Assembly: GCA_025054715.1 (NCBI GenBank)
Contig: JANWYH010000005.1
Coordinates: 32,335-96,334 of the forward strand
DNA from: Pyrinomonadaceae bacterium
GTDB taxonomy: Bacteria > Acidobacteriota > Blastocatellia > Pyrinomonadales > Pyrinomonadaceae
Direction: 5' to 3'
DNA: 64,000 nucleotides
The translations under genes and the position numbers were made by a program. Below are positions 34,218 through 42,626 of this stretch, piece after piece (the stretch's first letter is position 1; every line of letters begins with the position of its first letter). The notes beneath the pieces are model-generated. The model was not told the DNA's origin. It saw nothing but the letters and a program-made list of their open reading frames with translations, and ran no database searches.

Positions 34218-36953
34218 ATGACAACAACTCAAAAGAATAGACTAATAAGCATATCAACTCCTCTCGGAGAAGATTTTTTTCTACTACAGAGATTCACGGC
34301 AAAAGAAGCTATCTCAGAACTTTTTGAAGTAGAGGCCGAACTTTTGCATGAAGAGAAAAATTCAGGTCATCAAACTACTCAAATAGATGCAATATCCTTG
34401 CTAGGTCAATCTGTAACAATTAAAATCACACAGAAAGACGGTGTAGAACGCTATTTCAACGGCATTGTTAAGAAATTTTCGCAAATTGGTCGAAACGTCA
34501 GATTTTCTAGATATTATGCAACAATCGTTCCAAAGGTATGGATTCTTACGCAAAACATTCAAAGCAGAATATTTCAACAACTATCCGTTCCAGAGATTCT
34601 CAAGAAGATTCTAGAAGGATTTGAAGTTTCTTTTCAGCTTCAGAATTCCTATGAACCGAGAAATTACTGCGTTCAATACAGAGAATCAGATTTTGACTTC
34701 GCTTGCCGACTGATGGAAGAAGAAGGAATCTTCTACTTCTTTGAACATACTTCCAATGATCACAAGATGATAATATCCGATACATCTCAATCACATCAAC
34801 AATGTGCAAAAAGCTCTATTCCTTACTTCATAAATGTTGAAAGAAAAGAAGATTGGATAAGTTCCATACACAGATGGCAGATTGATTATAATTTACGAAG
34901 TGGAAAGATTACACTATGGGACCACAACTTTCAACTCCCACACAAAAGCCTAGAAGCGAGCAAATCTAGCCGATTTCTCGTTAGTGCAAATAAAGAAACT
35001 GAAATCTACGAATTTCCTGCAGGCTACGCAAGGAAATACGATGCAATTGACAAAAGCGGTAGTGAAAACTCATCCGAGCTGCAAAAGATTTTTAACGATA
35101 ATAGACATACAGCACAGATTAGAGCTGAAGAGATAGACTCGCAATACAAAGTTATCCATGGCAACTCTGATTGTGCAGCTCTTACAGCGGGTTTTCGTTT
35201 TAAGCTGTATAATCATCCTGATCAATCCGCAAACGGTGAATACGTTTTGACTAAAGTAACACACGAAGCTATGCAAAGCCCCTCCTATGTAAGCGAGGAA
35301 GAAGTAGAAGACGCTTATAAAAACAGTTTTACTTGCATACCCTACGGCGGCATTCATCCTACTTTTCGACCACCCAGAAAAACACCAAAACCGATAATAC
35401 ACGGCAGTCAAACCGCCTATGTTGTAGGACCAGCTGGTGAGGAAATATTTACTGACAAGTACGGGCGTGTTAAGGTTCAATTTCATTGGGATAGAGACGG
35501 AAAGGACAATGAAACTAGCTCTTGCTGGCTTAGAGTTGCGCAAAGTTGGGCCGGAAATGGTTGGGGATCGGTTTTTATTCCTCGTGTTGGAATGGAAGTT
35601 ATAGTTCATTTTCTAGAAGGGGATCCAGACCAGCCAATCATTACTGGTTGCGTCTATAATCCGACAGCAATGCCACCATACAAACTTCCAGAAGAAAAAA
35701 CTAAATCAACCATAAAATCAAATTCATCAAAAGGAAGCGGCGGCTTTAATGAAATACGCTTTGAAGACAAAAAAGGCGAAGAACAGGTTTTTGTTCACGC
35801 ACAAAGACGAATGGACGTGCGAGTAAGAGGCTCTTTGTATGAAACCTGTGGCGGAAATCGCCATGAAAGAATTGGTGTCCGCAGCGATAACCAACCCGGC
35901 GGAAACCTCGTCGTAACAGTAGGTGGAAGCCACGATCTGCATATCAAAGAATCGTTTTACATAAAAATTGATCAAGATTTGAATGAGTCCGTAAAGGGAA
36001 GCGTAGTCGAAGATTATCAAGGCAACCTCTCAACCATTGTTAAAAACAAGGTAGAGCTAAATGCACTAGAAATAACCATCGAAGCCAAGTCAAAGATAAG
36101 CTTGAAGGTTGGCGGAAATTGCATAATGCTTGACCCAAGCGGCATAACTATTGCAGGAACAATGGTTAAGATAAACTCTGGCGGATTTGCTATGGGAACA
36201 GGGAATCCACTAATCACCGAACCATTAGATGCAGAGCCCGCCGATACGGGAGAACCGGGCTTTTTGAATAAGAGAAGAGGAGCTACCGGAAGAGGACGAA
36301 ACCAAAGAAGATTAGAATCGCAGCATTACGTAGCACCTCCAAGACCAGGAGAAGACCCGAGAATAACTGAAATAAGAAATACGTTACAACATTCAGAAAG
36401 AGGACGCCATGCTTTAGAAGTGTACGATAGACACGGAGTAATTCCATCCTTCAACCCAGGAAAAGGCTCTTTCTTCAATGGTTCAACAAACACTGTGAAT
36501 CTAGACCCAAGTCAAAATACAATTACTTCTGCTCTTACGTTCGTTCATGAAATGAATCATGCCGAAGAGTATCATGAACGTAGAACCGGTGATGTTCACA
36601 AGCAATCTAAACAGGACTACATAAATGAAATGCTGCAGGAAGAAGTTGATGGAACAGTAGCTAGCATCGAAGCAAAGATAGAGCTAAAGCAAAACGGTGT
36701 GGACGTTTCAAACGCCCACTTTCCGCTTGAAAATGAATACCTTCAAGCTTATCAAGACGCCGTCAATAGTGCAATAAATAATAATCCCAACTTGAGCGAG
36801 TCAGAGCTAGATGCAATCGGAAGAGCTGCAGGAAGAGATAGAGTAATGAAAGGTTTTCAAGACGGAGAAGTTGTCACTTCTACAAATGGGCAAAAATACC
36901 CGGATTATTATGGTAGCTACTGGGATCAAGTTAATGGAGGCGGTAAAAAATAA
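34218..36953 (+). CDS. vgrG: Type VI secretion spike protein VgrG (TssI) with C-terminal HExxH metallopeptidase-like extension ('evolved' VgrG)
   Basis: 911 aa. The N-terminus ISTPLGEDFFLLQRFTAKEAISELFEVEAELL is gp27-like. The gp5 OB-fold is WLRVAQSWAGNGWGSVFIPRVGMEVIVHFLEGDPDQPIITGCVYN. The beta-helix ends at ...GTMVKINSGG near aa 655. An Arg-rich linker follows, then a ~200-aa domain containing FVHEMNHAEEYH (36546-36575). Confidence 0.9.
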   Translation: MTTTQKNRLISISTPLGEDFFLLQRFTAKEAISELFEVEAELLHEEKNSGHQTTQIDAISLLGQSVTIKITQKDGVERYFNGIVKKFSQIGRNVRFSRYYATIVPKVWILTQNIQSRIFQQLSVPEILKKILEGFEVSFQLQNSYEPRNYCVQYRESDFDFACRLMEEEGIFYFFEHTSNDHKMIISDTSQSHQQCAKSSIPYFINVERKEDWISSIHRWQIDYNLRSGKITLWDHNFQLPHKSLEASKSSRFLVSANKETEIYEFPAGYARKYDAIDKSGSENSSELQKIFNDNRHTAQIRAEEIDSQYKVIHGNSDCAALTAGFRFKLYNHPDQSANGEYVLTKVTHEAMQSPSYVSEEEVEDAYKNSFTCIPYGGIHPTFRPPRKTPKPIIHGSQTAYVVGPAGEEIFTDKYGRVKVQFHWDRDGKDNETSSCWLRVAQSWAGNGWGSVFIPRVGMEVIVHFLEGDPDQPIITGCVYNPTAMPPYKLPEEKTKSTIKSNSSKGSGGFNEIRFEDKKGEEQVFVHAQRRMDVRVRGSLYETCGGNRHERIGVRSDNQPGGNLVVTVGGSHDLHIKESFYIKIDQDLNESVKGSVVEDYQGNLSTIVKNKVELNALEITIEAKSKISLKVGGNCIMLDPSGITIAGTMVKINSGGFAMGTGNPLITEPLDAEPADTGEPGFLNKRRGATGRGRNQRRLESQHYVAPPRPGEDPRITEIRNTLQHSERGRHALEVYDRHGVIPSFNPGKGSFFNGSTNTVNLDPSQNTITSALTFVHEMNHAEEYHERRTGDVHKQSKQDYINEMLQEEVDGTVASIEAKIELKQNGVDVSNAHFPLENEYLQAYQDAVNSAINNNPNLSESELDAIGRAAGRDRVMKGFQDGEVVTSTNGQKYPDYYGSYWDQVNGGGKK

Positions 36954-37633
36954 TGCAAATAGCGGTTTTGACCTTAATTTTATTACTTCAACAAGTTTGT
37001 GCGAAAAGTCAAAATCACACTGATAACTCAAACATGGAGAGGAATCAAATGAACCAAAATGAAATAGTGGAAAGAATAAAAGAAGCAGATGAGCTTCTAG
37101 CAGATAAAATTACTAGACGAGAAGCAACTTTAGAAAAACGAGAAACACCTTTCTTAAAGAACGGAACCATCTACCGAATCGCTGAATTCAACCCAACGAG
37201 ACCTATAATTCACCATATCGTTTTTTTCAATGACAGAAAGGTAGTAATCCTTGAAGGCGACGAACAAAGCTTTTATTCGTCTGTAAGAGAAGCTGGTTTG
37301 GTTCTTGACAAAGCCAACGAGCGCGTTGAGTATGTAAAGGCTTACCTTGAAATAGTATATGCTAGTGGTAAACGATTGCAGATTCTTAACGACATAGATG
37401 AGATTACAGAAAGACCAAACCTCACTGAAGAAAAAAGAAAAATTTTTGCTGAAGTTAAAGAAAAATATAGATCGCTCGTAAAACCGCCTTCATGCTCTTT
37501 AACGAATTGTATTTTATTTGCAGTAAAGGGACAAAGTTTAGTCAAATTTGACTTGAAAATCTCAGGCGACGGAGAGATAAAAGTAGAAGAGGAAGTTTTG
37601 GAAAAAGAACTACTGATACCCTATACAATTTGA
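36953..37633 (+). CDS. Hypothetical protein; candidate cognate immunity protein for the VgrG C-terminal domain
   Basis: 226-aa ORF whose ATG overlaps the vgrG stop by 1 nt (TAATG). GGAGG lies about 12 nt upstream. The hydrophobic N-terminus (MQIAVLTLILLLQQVCA) lacks a basic n-region, so export is uncertain. No recognisable motif. Confidence 0.6.
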   Translation: MQIAVLTLILLLQQVCAKSQNHTDNSNMERNQMNQNEIVERIKEADELLADKITRREATLEKRETPFLKNGTIYRIAEFNPTRPIIHHIVFFNDRKVVILEGDEQSFYSSVREAGLVLDKANERVEYVKAYLEIVYASGKRLQILNDIDEITERPNLTEEKRKIFAEVKEKYRSLVKPPSCSLTNCILFAVKGQSLVKFDLKISGDGEIKVEEEVLEKELLIPYTI

Positions 37634-40575: not shown

Positions 40576-41922
40576 TCATCTATCGTAGATTTCTACCTTT
40601 CCTTCGTAAGCCTCTGCAACGGTAAGACCATTGTTGTTCAAGAGAAAGACCTTGCTGAAATTTCTCTGTTTACCGACGTTGACTAATTTTTCAACCATTG
40701 CTTTCTTTTCACTATCGTTCAGAGTCTTCCATTTGTCTGTCACGACACCAATCAAAAGCTCATTACTTATTCTACCTGCTTTCAGATAACCTTGGAATTC
40801 CGTGTTTTCAATTTGAAATATCTCGACATTCTTCTTCGTCACGCCGCTCATCCCGAATTCTACATAGACGTAAAGCGCCAAGGCCAAACCAATCGTTAGA
40901 AATAAAACCACCAGTAACCATTTGTTTGTGATAGTAAAGGAAAAACTCGGGATAAATGGAGTAATTTCCTGCTTTTTCTTTTCTTTCTTAGGTTTTTTCT
41001 TAACCAGAATTTCCGTTTGTGTCTCAGGTTCTGAAAACCTTACTACTTCTTCCCTTTTTGCATCCACAATATCAGCAACGTTAAAAGTTTTAGCTATTGC
41101 TTCAGATAAAATATCGTCAATAGAAGCACCGTATCTTGACTTTACAGCTTCTGCACCAAGCACTTCTTTTTCACGCAAAACAAGCTCGACACAATGGTTC
41201 CCAAAAGAAACATTACAATCCACAGAAGCGGCCAATACGTAAGGAGCTAGAAATTCTTCTCCCAAGCTTGCTTTGAAATTTAGAAGTTCGCTATGAATGC
41301 CACTTTGAAGCAGCTCTCCGAGAGTATTGAAATTTTTAGCTCTTTCAACAAATTCTCTAAATCTTGCTAGAACCTCGTCCTTTTGCTCAGAAAATAAAGG
41401 AGCATTTGCCCATTCTTTGTAAAAGCCTTCAAATTTCATTCTTATTTCATCAGTCGAAGCTACAAGCTCACGGCTCTTATTCCAAGTTTGCGTGCTAAAA
41501 AGTTTTGTTACCAATACATCCAACTTAGAACGGATATGTTCGGAGAAAGGTAATCCAGTGTAGAACCTAATCAGGGAAACTAAAGCCTGAGGACTTAAAG
41601 GTGGTTTTGAATTCTCGCAGTATAATCTAAATTCGGAGGGCATGATTTTCTTGTCTCTTTGCGCCAAGGATAAATACCAAAGCTCTATTTGCTCTTCTAT
41701 TTTTTCCTCGATTTCTGATGTTTTTTCCCTGTTTTCGGACTGAATCGCTTTCGAAAAGTCATGCAGAATGCTTTTTAGCTGTGATACATTAAACCTTTCG
41801 TCAGAATTAGCCCCTTTGCCCTTCTCTATACTAGAAAAGATATAATCAACTAGCTGGAGAGAGCTTACCTCGCTTTCAAAATCGCGATAAGACTTTTCCA
41901 TATTTTGATAACCATCAAACAT
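40576..41922 (-). CDS. Hypothetical single-pass membrane protein
   Basis: 448-aa ORF starting 10 nt downstream of the pilin gene. It has a Lys-rich stretch (KKKPKKEKKKQE), then one TM helix (WLLVVLFLTIGLALALYVYV) and a ~95-aa C-terminal domain. No recognisable family. Confidence 0.6.
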   Translation of the reverse strand: MFDGYQNMEKSYRDFESEVSSLQLVDYIFSSIEKGKGANSDERFNVSQLKSILHDFSKAIQSENREKTSEIEEKIEEQIELWYLSLAQRDKKIMPSEFRLYCENSKPPLSPQALVSLIRFYTGLPFSEHIRSKLDVLVTKLFSTQTWNKSRELVASTDEIRMKFEGFYKEWANAPLFSEQKDEVLARFREFVERAKNFNTLGELLQSGIHSELLNFKASLGEEFLAPYVLAASVDCNVSFGNHCVELVLREKEVLGAEAVKSRYGASIDDILSEAIAKTFNVADIVDAKREEVVRFSEPETQTEILVKKKPKKEKKKQEITPFIPSFSFTITNKWLLVVLFLTIGLALALYVYVEFGMSGVTKKNVEIFQIENTEFQGYLKAGRISNELLIGVVTDKWKTLNDSEKKAMVEKLVNVGKQRNFSKVFLLNNNGLTVAEAYEGKVEIYDR

Positions 41923-41931
41923 CTTTTCTCT

Positions 41932-42345
41932 TCACGGCATAATTTCAGTTATTTGTCCTGTATGGTTTCCTGAGATTGTATATGGCAAATCAATACCGCC
42001 GGGCTTTGACGCAACAATGGTAAATTCATTTCTTAGTTGCGAATCGGTCGGATTTACAGGAACCATCTGAAACGTAAAACTACCACGGTAAAGAGTGTTT
42101 CCCGATATTTCACCGAGTCCACCGCCTTGGTGAGCATTCAATTCATCAAGCCTAGCAAACCTTGCGTTCTGAGAGTAATAACTAAACTCAGCAGATATGA
42201 TAGTTCTCATAGTAGCGTAGGCATTTGCATTCTCCGCAGCACTTCTTGCCCTACGCAAGAACGGAAAAACTATCACGGCTAGTATCCCTAAAATTACCAA
42301 AACTATTAAAAGCTCGACCAAAGAAAACCCCTTCTCTTTTCTCAT
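41932..42345 (-). CDS. Type IV pilin / pseudopilin with prepilin-type N-terminal cleavage-methylation motif
   Basis: The ATG at 42345, preceded by AGGAAGGAG, gives MRKEKG|FSLVELLIVLVILGILAVIV (G-1, F+1, E+5). The ORF track start at 42408 adds 21 unlikely residues. Confidence 0.85.
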   Translation of the reverse strand: MRKEKGFSLVELLIVLVILGILAVIVFPFLRRARSAAENANAYATMRTIISAEFSYYSQNARFARLDELNAHQGGGLGEISGNTLYRGSFTFQMVPVNPTDSQLRNEFTIVASKPGGIDLPYTISGNHTGQITEIMP

Positions 42346-42626
42346 CTTTCTATTTCTCCTTCCTAAAAAATGACACTTTTTGGCACCTAAACTGACAAAT
42401 ATCTGCACTAAGCTTTTCTGAGATTTCGCAAAAAATCATTGATTTTCAAAATTTTTCAAATAATGCAAGGCTTCATTAAATTTCTCCAATTCACCTTTGG
42501 CAAATCTTATGCCAAAAAATTTCGTTTATACGCGGAAAATAATTGTTGATGAAGATTTCATTTTTTGCTAAATTTTTGCTATTCATATAAGTTTTAGGCA
42601 ATAATTCCAAGTTTGGGGTAGTTGAA

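Follow-up and report, generated by a model that had tools for sequence, protein, structure and literature searches.

Among metallopeptidase effectors fused to VgrG, essentially one family has been studied so far, that of VgrG2b/Tpe1, and for this family it is still unclear which substrate is the physiological one. The C-terminal domain of VgrG2b from Pseudomonas aeruginosa is a thermolysin-like gluzincin in which H935, E936 and H939 of the HExxH motif are joined by E983 (PDB 6H56; PMC6899460). The domain is toxic in the periplasm only. Neutralisation is the task of PA0261, an immunity protein that is exported and that in Enterobacteriaceae is a lipoprotein (PMC6899460).

Here we describe a vgrG locus in a 64,000-nucleotide stretch of contig JANWYH010000005.1, from a Pyrinomonadaceae bacterium of the phylum Acidobacteriota; we refer to the whole stretch as the window. 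In the open reading frame list the vgrG gene occupies 34218..36953 of the forward strand and encodes a protein of 911 amino acids. Two small genes follow, one for a predicted lipoprotein and one for a PAAR spike-tip protein. We consider it likely that this VgrG carries an antibacterial protease effector of a type VI secretion system (T6SS), acting in the periplasm, and that the lipoprotein is its immunity partner. The locus would then represent a second, unrelated family of predicted gluzincin toxins with a clearly identifiable immunity partner. It would also offer a defined pair for finding the envelope component that such proteases attack, and it comes from a phylum whose T6SS biology is almost unstudied. 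The design itself is an established one, and Pfam already lists the domain as a putative metallopeptidase.

How far does the parallel with VgrG2b extend? In the VgrG2b-PA0261 pair (Tpe/Tpi family), as predicted for the window, an HExxH gluzincin domain with three strands and several helices forms the C-terminus of a VgrG, and an immunity gene lies immediately downstream. Both would follow one plan, an antibacterial protease at work in the periplasm. That the downstream product of the window is a predicted lipoprotein is an analogous feature only. The two toxins share no sequence homology in our searches: the PDB was searched with the single sequence and with two profiles without a match to VgrG2b at E<=10, and 6H56 is absent among the best 50 of 94 Foldseek matches with E<=10. 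The spacing to the third ligand is x43 in VgrG2b (H939 to E983), and that to the candidate third ligand of the window domain is x26. Unlike VgrG2b, the toxin of the window has no TTR domain before it. The initial annotation of this DNA had cited VgrG2b as a precedent, and as an analogy the comparison is apt; the two pairs appear to be analogous without being detectably homologous.

The C-terminal DUF6782 domain

Roughly the first 650 amino acids of the protein make up a VgrG core, recognised by TIGR03361 with 611 bits against a cut-off of 186. Pfam places Phage_GPD at residues 29-353, Phage_base_V at 413-480 and Gp5_trimer_C at 497-599, and the beta-helix terminates with GTMVKINSGG at residue 656 (V650 is at 36165). 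Beyond it lies a C-terminal extension of about 255 amino acids, residues 657-911, consisting of a linker and the DUF6782 domain. Both features of an evolved, or specialised, VgrG are present: a full gp27/gp5-like core and an extra predicted effector domain beyond the beta-helix.

The extension had at first been thought to belong to no named family. It matches PF20573 (DUF6782, 'putative metallopeptidase family') above the curated cut-off, with 38.6 bits for the C-terminal 262 amino acids and 35.4 bits for the full protein against a gathering threshold of 27, although in this protein the Pfam model extends over only about positions 18-146 of 241. An AlphaFold2 (AF2) model of the extension, built on 22 homologues, has a mean predicted local distance difference test score (pLDDT) of 85, and each 10-residue block of model residues 61-250 averages at least 93. 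The predicted fold begins with two helices and a three-stranded sheet. A long helix carrying the HExxH motif follows (model residues 119-137), then a second long helix (149-176) and three further helices. Foldseek searches gave weak matches, the best of them almost all to small zincins: the metalloprotease domain of ArdC, selecase, abylysin, IrrE/PprI, SprT-like proteins and the PolyVal metallopeptidase. The DUF6782 match, the retention of HExxH in the family and the zincin-like layout of the model uphold, as a prediction, the earlier proposal of a zinc metallopeptidase effector fused to VgrG.

The motif HEMNH and the further histidine, H786, lie exactly where the initial annotation had put them (Table 1). 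From typical residue frequencies we estimate that an HExxH sequence would be expected about 0.02 times by chance in a protein of this size. All 22 close homologues have V-H-E-x-x-H and Y801 without exception. For family-wide counts we aligned 177 domain instances, taken from the best matches of a library-wide search. H777 and E778 are each kept in 167 of the 177 and H781 in 168, so the motif is conserved among close and distant homologues alike. R798 and Y801 are likewise strongly conserved, and the family signature reads VHExxHA-x5-G-x9-R-xx-Y-x6-EE.

What completes the zinc site? The spacing HExxH-x4-H, pointed out earlier as a peculiarity of this protein, is no family feature, since H786 is kept in only 74 of 172 instances (43%); the neighbouring E787 is found in 86 of 175. 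Two acids further downstream fare better: E808 is present in 159 of 177 instances (90%) and E809 in 169 (95%). Because these conserved residues lie on the helix after the active-site helix in the AF2 model, HExxH-x26-E appears to be a gluzincin pattern in which E808 or E809 would serve as the third ligand. The spacing from HExxH to the next His had been described as matching neither the metzincin pattern nor an obvious gluzincin one. The first half of that description holds; with E808 or E809 as the candidate ligand, a gluzincin pattern is nevertheless likely. As a metzincin (HExxHxxGxxH) the domain was rejected: its sequence reads HEMNHAEEYHE, with no Gly at +3 and with the next His at x4 and 43% conserved.

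Peptidase M78 (ImmA/IrrE) shares this spacing. The zinc ligands of IrrE are H82, H86 and E113 (PMC5552922), an arrangement identical to HExxH-x26-E in the window domain. Nine of 66 DUF6782 family members match PF06114, with E down to 6e-8, and the relative from locus L009 reaches 25.0 bits where the cut-off is 22. IrrE/PprI is found among the weak fold matches noted above, and a domain-only family profile run against the PDB gave a weak IrrE match (E=0.15) over the strand and HExxH region. The window protein itself, however, has no PF06114 match at E<=1, and its C-terminal helical subdomain differs. M78 enzymes, moreover, are cytoplasmic regulators that cleave repressors, not secreted toxins. 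These comparisons suggest a distant relationship between DUF6782 and M78, not membership.

Peptidase M91 (NleD/HopH1) and Tox-MPTase1-5 are likewise zincin HExxH toxin domains found at the C-termini of polymorphic toxins. M91, Tox-MPTase and SprT profiles had been suggested as checks, and none of them claims the domain. Membership in M91 (PF14891) was rejected at 13.6 bits and E=0.087, where the cut-off is 25 bits; compared by hhalign with the M91 domains that sister VgrGs carry, it aligned over 19 columns around HExxH only, with a probability of 12%. Among Pfam matches of the window protein at E<=1 there is no Tox-MPTase and no SprT model. NCBIfam has no model that matches either the C-terminal domain or the immunity protein. 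A PDB sequence search with the C-terminal region as a single sequence returned nothing at E<=10, and one with the A1 profile returned noise and a match to the VgrG beta-helix only.

The domain-only profile that found IrrE also gave a borderline match to the putative cation transport regulator ChaB (PDB 1sg7, E=0.0054). This match falls in the C-terminal helical subdomain, at VgrG residues ~835-884.

The candidate immunity gene

The start codon of the downstream gene overlaps the stop codon of vgrG in the sequence TAATG. Its 226-residue product has no match in Pfam. The AF2 model (pLDDT 82) has an alpha/beta body after 31 disordered residues, and a fold search with it against the PDB gave no meaningful match. 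An exact-sequence look-up of the VgrG itself found no record. The downstream protein, by contrast, has a counterpart with 100% identity, annotated as hypothetical, in a Pyrinomonadaceae metagenome-assembled genome (MAG), and the same order of vgrG, this open reading frame (ORF) and PAAR is found in GCA_026419355.1.

Evidence for an immunity function comes from linkage. We collected related loci by a genome scan with a 6-sequence alignment. By tblastn a homologue stands right after the DUF6782 gene in seven of nine genome loci; with a hidden Markov model built from five homologues it does so in ten of ten, including L001, a related metagenomic contig. These ten loci span Acidobacteriota, a cyanobacterium (whose carrier is eCIS_core-DUF6782), Bacteroidota, Myxococcales and Acetobacteraceae, and the gene is there whatever the carrier, including carriers with only a short leader. 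Judged from these gene neighbourhoods, it accompanies the toxin domain and not VgrG, which is how a cognate immunity gene behaves. Compared with L001, the immunity protein is 29% identical and the adjacent PAAR protein 71%; such faster divergence is typical of immunity proteins.

Where the toxin acts is suggested by the N-terminus of its partner. In 17 of 19 database homologues a short hydrophobic leader ends in Cys (LQQVC, LQANC, FVQC, LLAC, LSNC) and is followed by a low-complexity tether. Eight of the ten locus copies also have a hydrophobic leader, ending in Cys in all except L013, which is signal-peptide-like and has no Cys. We read the immunity protein as a lipoprotein facing the periplasm, and for that reason the toxin would be expected to act there.

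We propose the following sequence of events. The VgrG trimer would form the spike, and a disordered Gly/Arg linker of ~50 residues would tether three zinc metallopeptidase domains of ~205 amino acids to the C-terminal end of the beta-helix, beside the PAAR tip. Firing would deliver the domain into a diderm neighbour, where it most likely acts in the periplasm, as a gluzincin-type protease on an envelope protein or peptide. The zinc ligands would be H777, H781 and either E808 or E809, and the general base E778. The co-translated lipoprotein would protect the producer and its kin by binding and blocking the protease in the periplasm. In this scheme we infer that zinc is bound and by which third ligand, that the domain is proteolytic, that it works in the periplasm and that the lipoprotein inhibits it by direct binding.

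Several observations weigh against this proposal. Our literature search found no paper that names DUF6782 or PF20573, and the family has no characterised member. Foldseek gave no match at E<0.001 against the PDB and BFVD. T6SS core genes were looked for within the 64-kb window and none was found; that the genome has a functional T6SS is an assumption. As to the compartment, the immunity homologue that follows the cyanobacterial eCIS_core-DUF6782 gene in L009 has no leader, nor do two short forms in the database, so the target may not be exclusively periplasmic. The window gene itself contains an internal ATG (37049, M33) with a strong Shine-Dalgarno sequence, GGAGAGG, at ideal spacing before it (the segment as a whole is 37036-37051). 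The position equivalent to M33 is also where two database homologues begin, as does the gene called in L001. A leaderless, cytoplasmic isoform of the immunity protein made from this ATG is possible.

These leaderless forms and the GGAGAGG sequence would also fit a protease that acts mainly on a cytoplasmic or dual-compartment substrate, such as the precursor peptides of peptidoglycan or some membrane protein, with the lipoprotein as one of two immunity isoforms. The eCIS_core and WXG100 carriers described below point the same way, because such carriers, the latter belonging to the type VII secretion system (T7SS), usually mean delivery into, or action at, other compartments. We nevertheless regard this alternative as unlikely. 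The export leaders and lipobox-like cysteines of most immunity homologues, in the database and at the loci, speak against it, and many stand-alone family members carry Sec-type leaders, which would be pointless for a toxin confined to the cytoplasm.

Linker, carriers and spread of the family

Between the beta-helix and the toxin lies a linker that is first acidic and Pro-rich and then rich in Gly and Arg. The AF2 model gives its residues 1-55, which correspond to the linker, a pLDDT below 55, indicating disorder. The basic patch that the initial annotation reported at 36266-36310 is present, one nucleotide further along; it reads NKRRGATGRGRNQRR (residues 684-698). Conserved among DUF6782-carrying VgrGs is the motif DPLDAEPADTGEPGYLDRPRxGGGRGRxxRxLxxQH-APP, preceded by MVKINSGG. 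The same motif is equally conserved in the sister VgrGs P0023-P0027 of the window clade, which after 'QH-APP' switch to Peptidase_M91 at the very junction where DUF6782 begins here (compare 36090-36340). Across six related VgrG loci the linker is 52-71% identical; the sources of these loci are Pyrinomonadaceae, other Acidobacteriota, Bryobacterales and a MAG of Acetobacteraceae. From these alignments the Gly/Arg linker is a clade-wide VgrG junction, a flexible tether, and 'QH-APP' is probably a recombination boundary for the exchange of toxin cassettes.

This bears on a quite different view of the effector. The Arg-rich linker could be a nuclear-localisation signal, as was suggested when the patch was first noticed, and the protease could cleave proteins of a eukaryotic host as M91/NleD does. 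The patch does look superficially like such a signal, and the sub-threshold match to Peptidase_M91 (13.6 bits against 25) might be taken in the same sense. We give this view scarcely any credence. Sister VgrGs with a different toxin domain, M91, have the same linker, so the Arg-rich patch is a property of the VgrG clade and not of the effector, and we reject its reading as a localisation signal on that ground. The resemblance to the sister M91 domains is confined to the 19 columns aligned by hhalign. The source lineage is free-living, from soil and sediment. An immunity gene is, moreover, tightly linked in ten of ten loci, and to our knowledge toxins aimed only at eukaryotes are generally without immunity genes. 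The same argument from immunity genes has been made for PVC-system toxins (PMC3482391).

The toxin domain belongs to a large family. A full scan of a library of representatives at 50% identity found the DUF6782-type domain in 505 clusters at E<=1e-3; at the stricter limit of E<=1e-10 the number is 322. Of the PF20573 comparisons, 55 of 66 sampled relatives exceed the gathering threshold. In all 166 of 166 proteins it lies at the extreme C-terminus. N-terminal to it are found full VgrGs, PAAR, eCIS_core (formerly DUF4157; 17 of 66) and WXG100/T7SS-signal domains; other N-termini are Sec-type leaders (signal peptides) and Flp/TadE-like leaders. Because it is always C-terminal and its carriers come from several secretion systems, the domain is, by its architecture, polymorphic-toxin cargo, riding on at least four delivery systems.

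Could the domain be something other than a toxin? Some zincin domains of polymorphic toxins are releasing peptidases (PMC3482391), and this one might process its own carrier in that way, or it might be a non-catalytic structural or adaptor module. Its tandem, mostly degenerate copies in two giant proteins (P0087 and P0100) show that catalysis can be lost and the fold retained. We find this very unlikely for the window protein. At the extreme C-terminus nothing is left downstream to be released, and every single-copy member strictly retains HExxH, degenerate motifs being confined to the two giants. The linked immunity gene argues for toxicity. An adaptor or TTR-type fold, which had been named as a possible outcome, did not appear: the Pfam and Foldseek searches returned nothing TTR- or adaptor-like. 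A catalytic toxin domain is the interpretation we retain.

A broader proposal, which we put forward only tentatively as a little short of an even chance, is that DUF6782 and its linked lipoprotein make up a toxin-immunity module that spans phyla and has not been described before. The protease would be exchanged among T6SS (VgrG, PAAR), extracellular contractile injection system (eCIS), T7SS-like and Sec carriers, and it would kill by cleaving a conserved envelope target. If this is true, that target could be a new antibacterial vulnerability.

Some relatives have unusual architectures. In P0087 (6678 amino acids) the domain profile matches eleven stretches, and about ten of these can be recognised as copies. 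Two copies have HExxH and the rest read R-A-A-x-L/A. P0100 (1652 amino acids) has a WXG100-like N-terminus and four copies of the domain, one with an intact HExxH. Such tandem, mostly catalytically dead copies hint that the fold has a second use, one that is not enzymatic.

Two of the related loci have features of their own. In L001 (2401-4314) the vgrG gene is cut immediately upstream by an insertion sequence element with an rve-family transposase; its C-terminal DUF6782 part is intact, and so are the genes for the immunity protein and PAAR. In L009 (2912-6204), from a Coleofasciculus MAG, the eCIS_core-DUF6782 toxin and the leaderless immunity homologue are followed by a second gene. Its product has the same N-terminal 'LQTRPFG' leader and an unrelated C-terminus without a Pfam match. 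This row of genes may be a polymorphic toxin array.

Flanking genes and other features of the window

The PAAR protein has an Ala-rich segment of ~100 amino acids before the PAAR motif match at residues 119-168. A PAAR gene also follows the immunity gene in loci L005, L006 and L008. The surroundings are housekeeping genes: GAPDH and PGK upstream, and a pyridoxal-phosphate-dependent protein of the Ala_racemase_N family and glutamine synthetase downstream. Elsewhere in the window lie genes for a 2-oxoacid dehydrogenase complex and for an SMC protein. A composition profile gives a uniform G+C fraction of ~0.40 across the island, with no anomaly that would point to horizontal transfer. Taken as a whole, the vgrG(DUF6782)-immunity-PAAR locus is probably an orphan T6SS effector island of this Pyrinomonadaceae bacterium. 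Coordinates of its features are collected in Table 1.

Table 1. Features of the vgrG locus and nearby genes, in window coordinates
Feature	Position	Strand	Evidence
VgrG spike core, aa 1-656: gp27-like hub, OB fold, gp5 C-terminal beta-helix	34218..36185	+	TIGR03361, Pfam
Flexible linker, aa 657-705, acidic/Pro then Gly/Arg-rich	36186..36332	+	AF2 pLDDT, homologue conservation
Basic patch within linker	36267-36311	+	
DUF6782 zincin-like metallopeptidase toxin domain (predicted), aa 706-911	36333..36950	+	PF20573, AF2
HEMNH: H777 and H781 predicted zinc ligands, E778 predicted catalytic base	36546..36560	+	conservation
H786 codon	36573-36575	+	
E808-E809, candidate third zinc ligand (HExxH-x26-E)	36639..36644	+	conservation, AF2 helix 149-176
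ChaB-matching segment	36720-36870	+	
Candidate cognate immunity gene, 226-aa predicted lipoprotein, leader MQIAVLTLILLLQQVC	36953..37633	+	linkage, leader, AF2
PAAR spike-tip protein, 168 aa	37640..38146	+	PF05488, 40.5 bits
448-aa ORF	40576-41922	-	
Prepilin-type (N_methyl) gene	41932-42408	-	

Further along the window, the 448-residue ORF has no Pfam match and contains a Lys/Glu-rich segment and a transmembrane-like stretch. It lies directly downstream of the prepilin-type gene.

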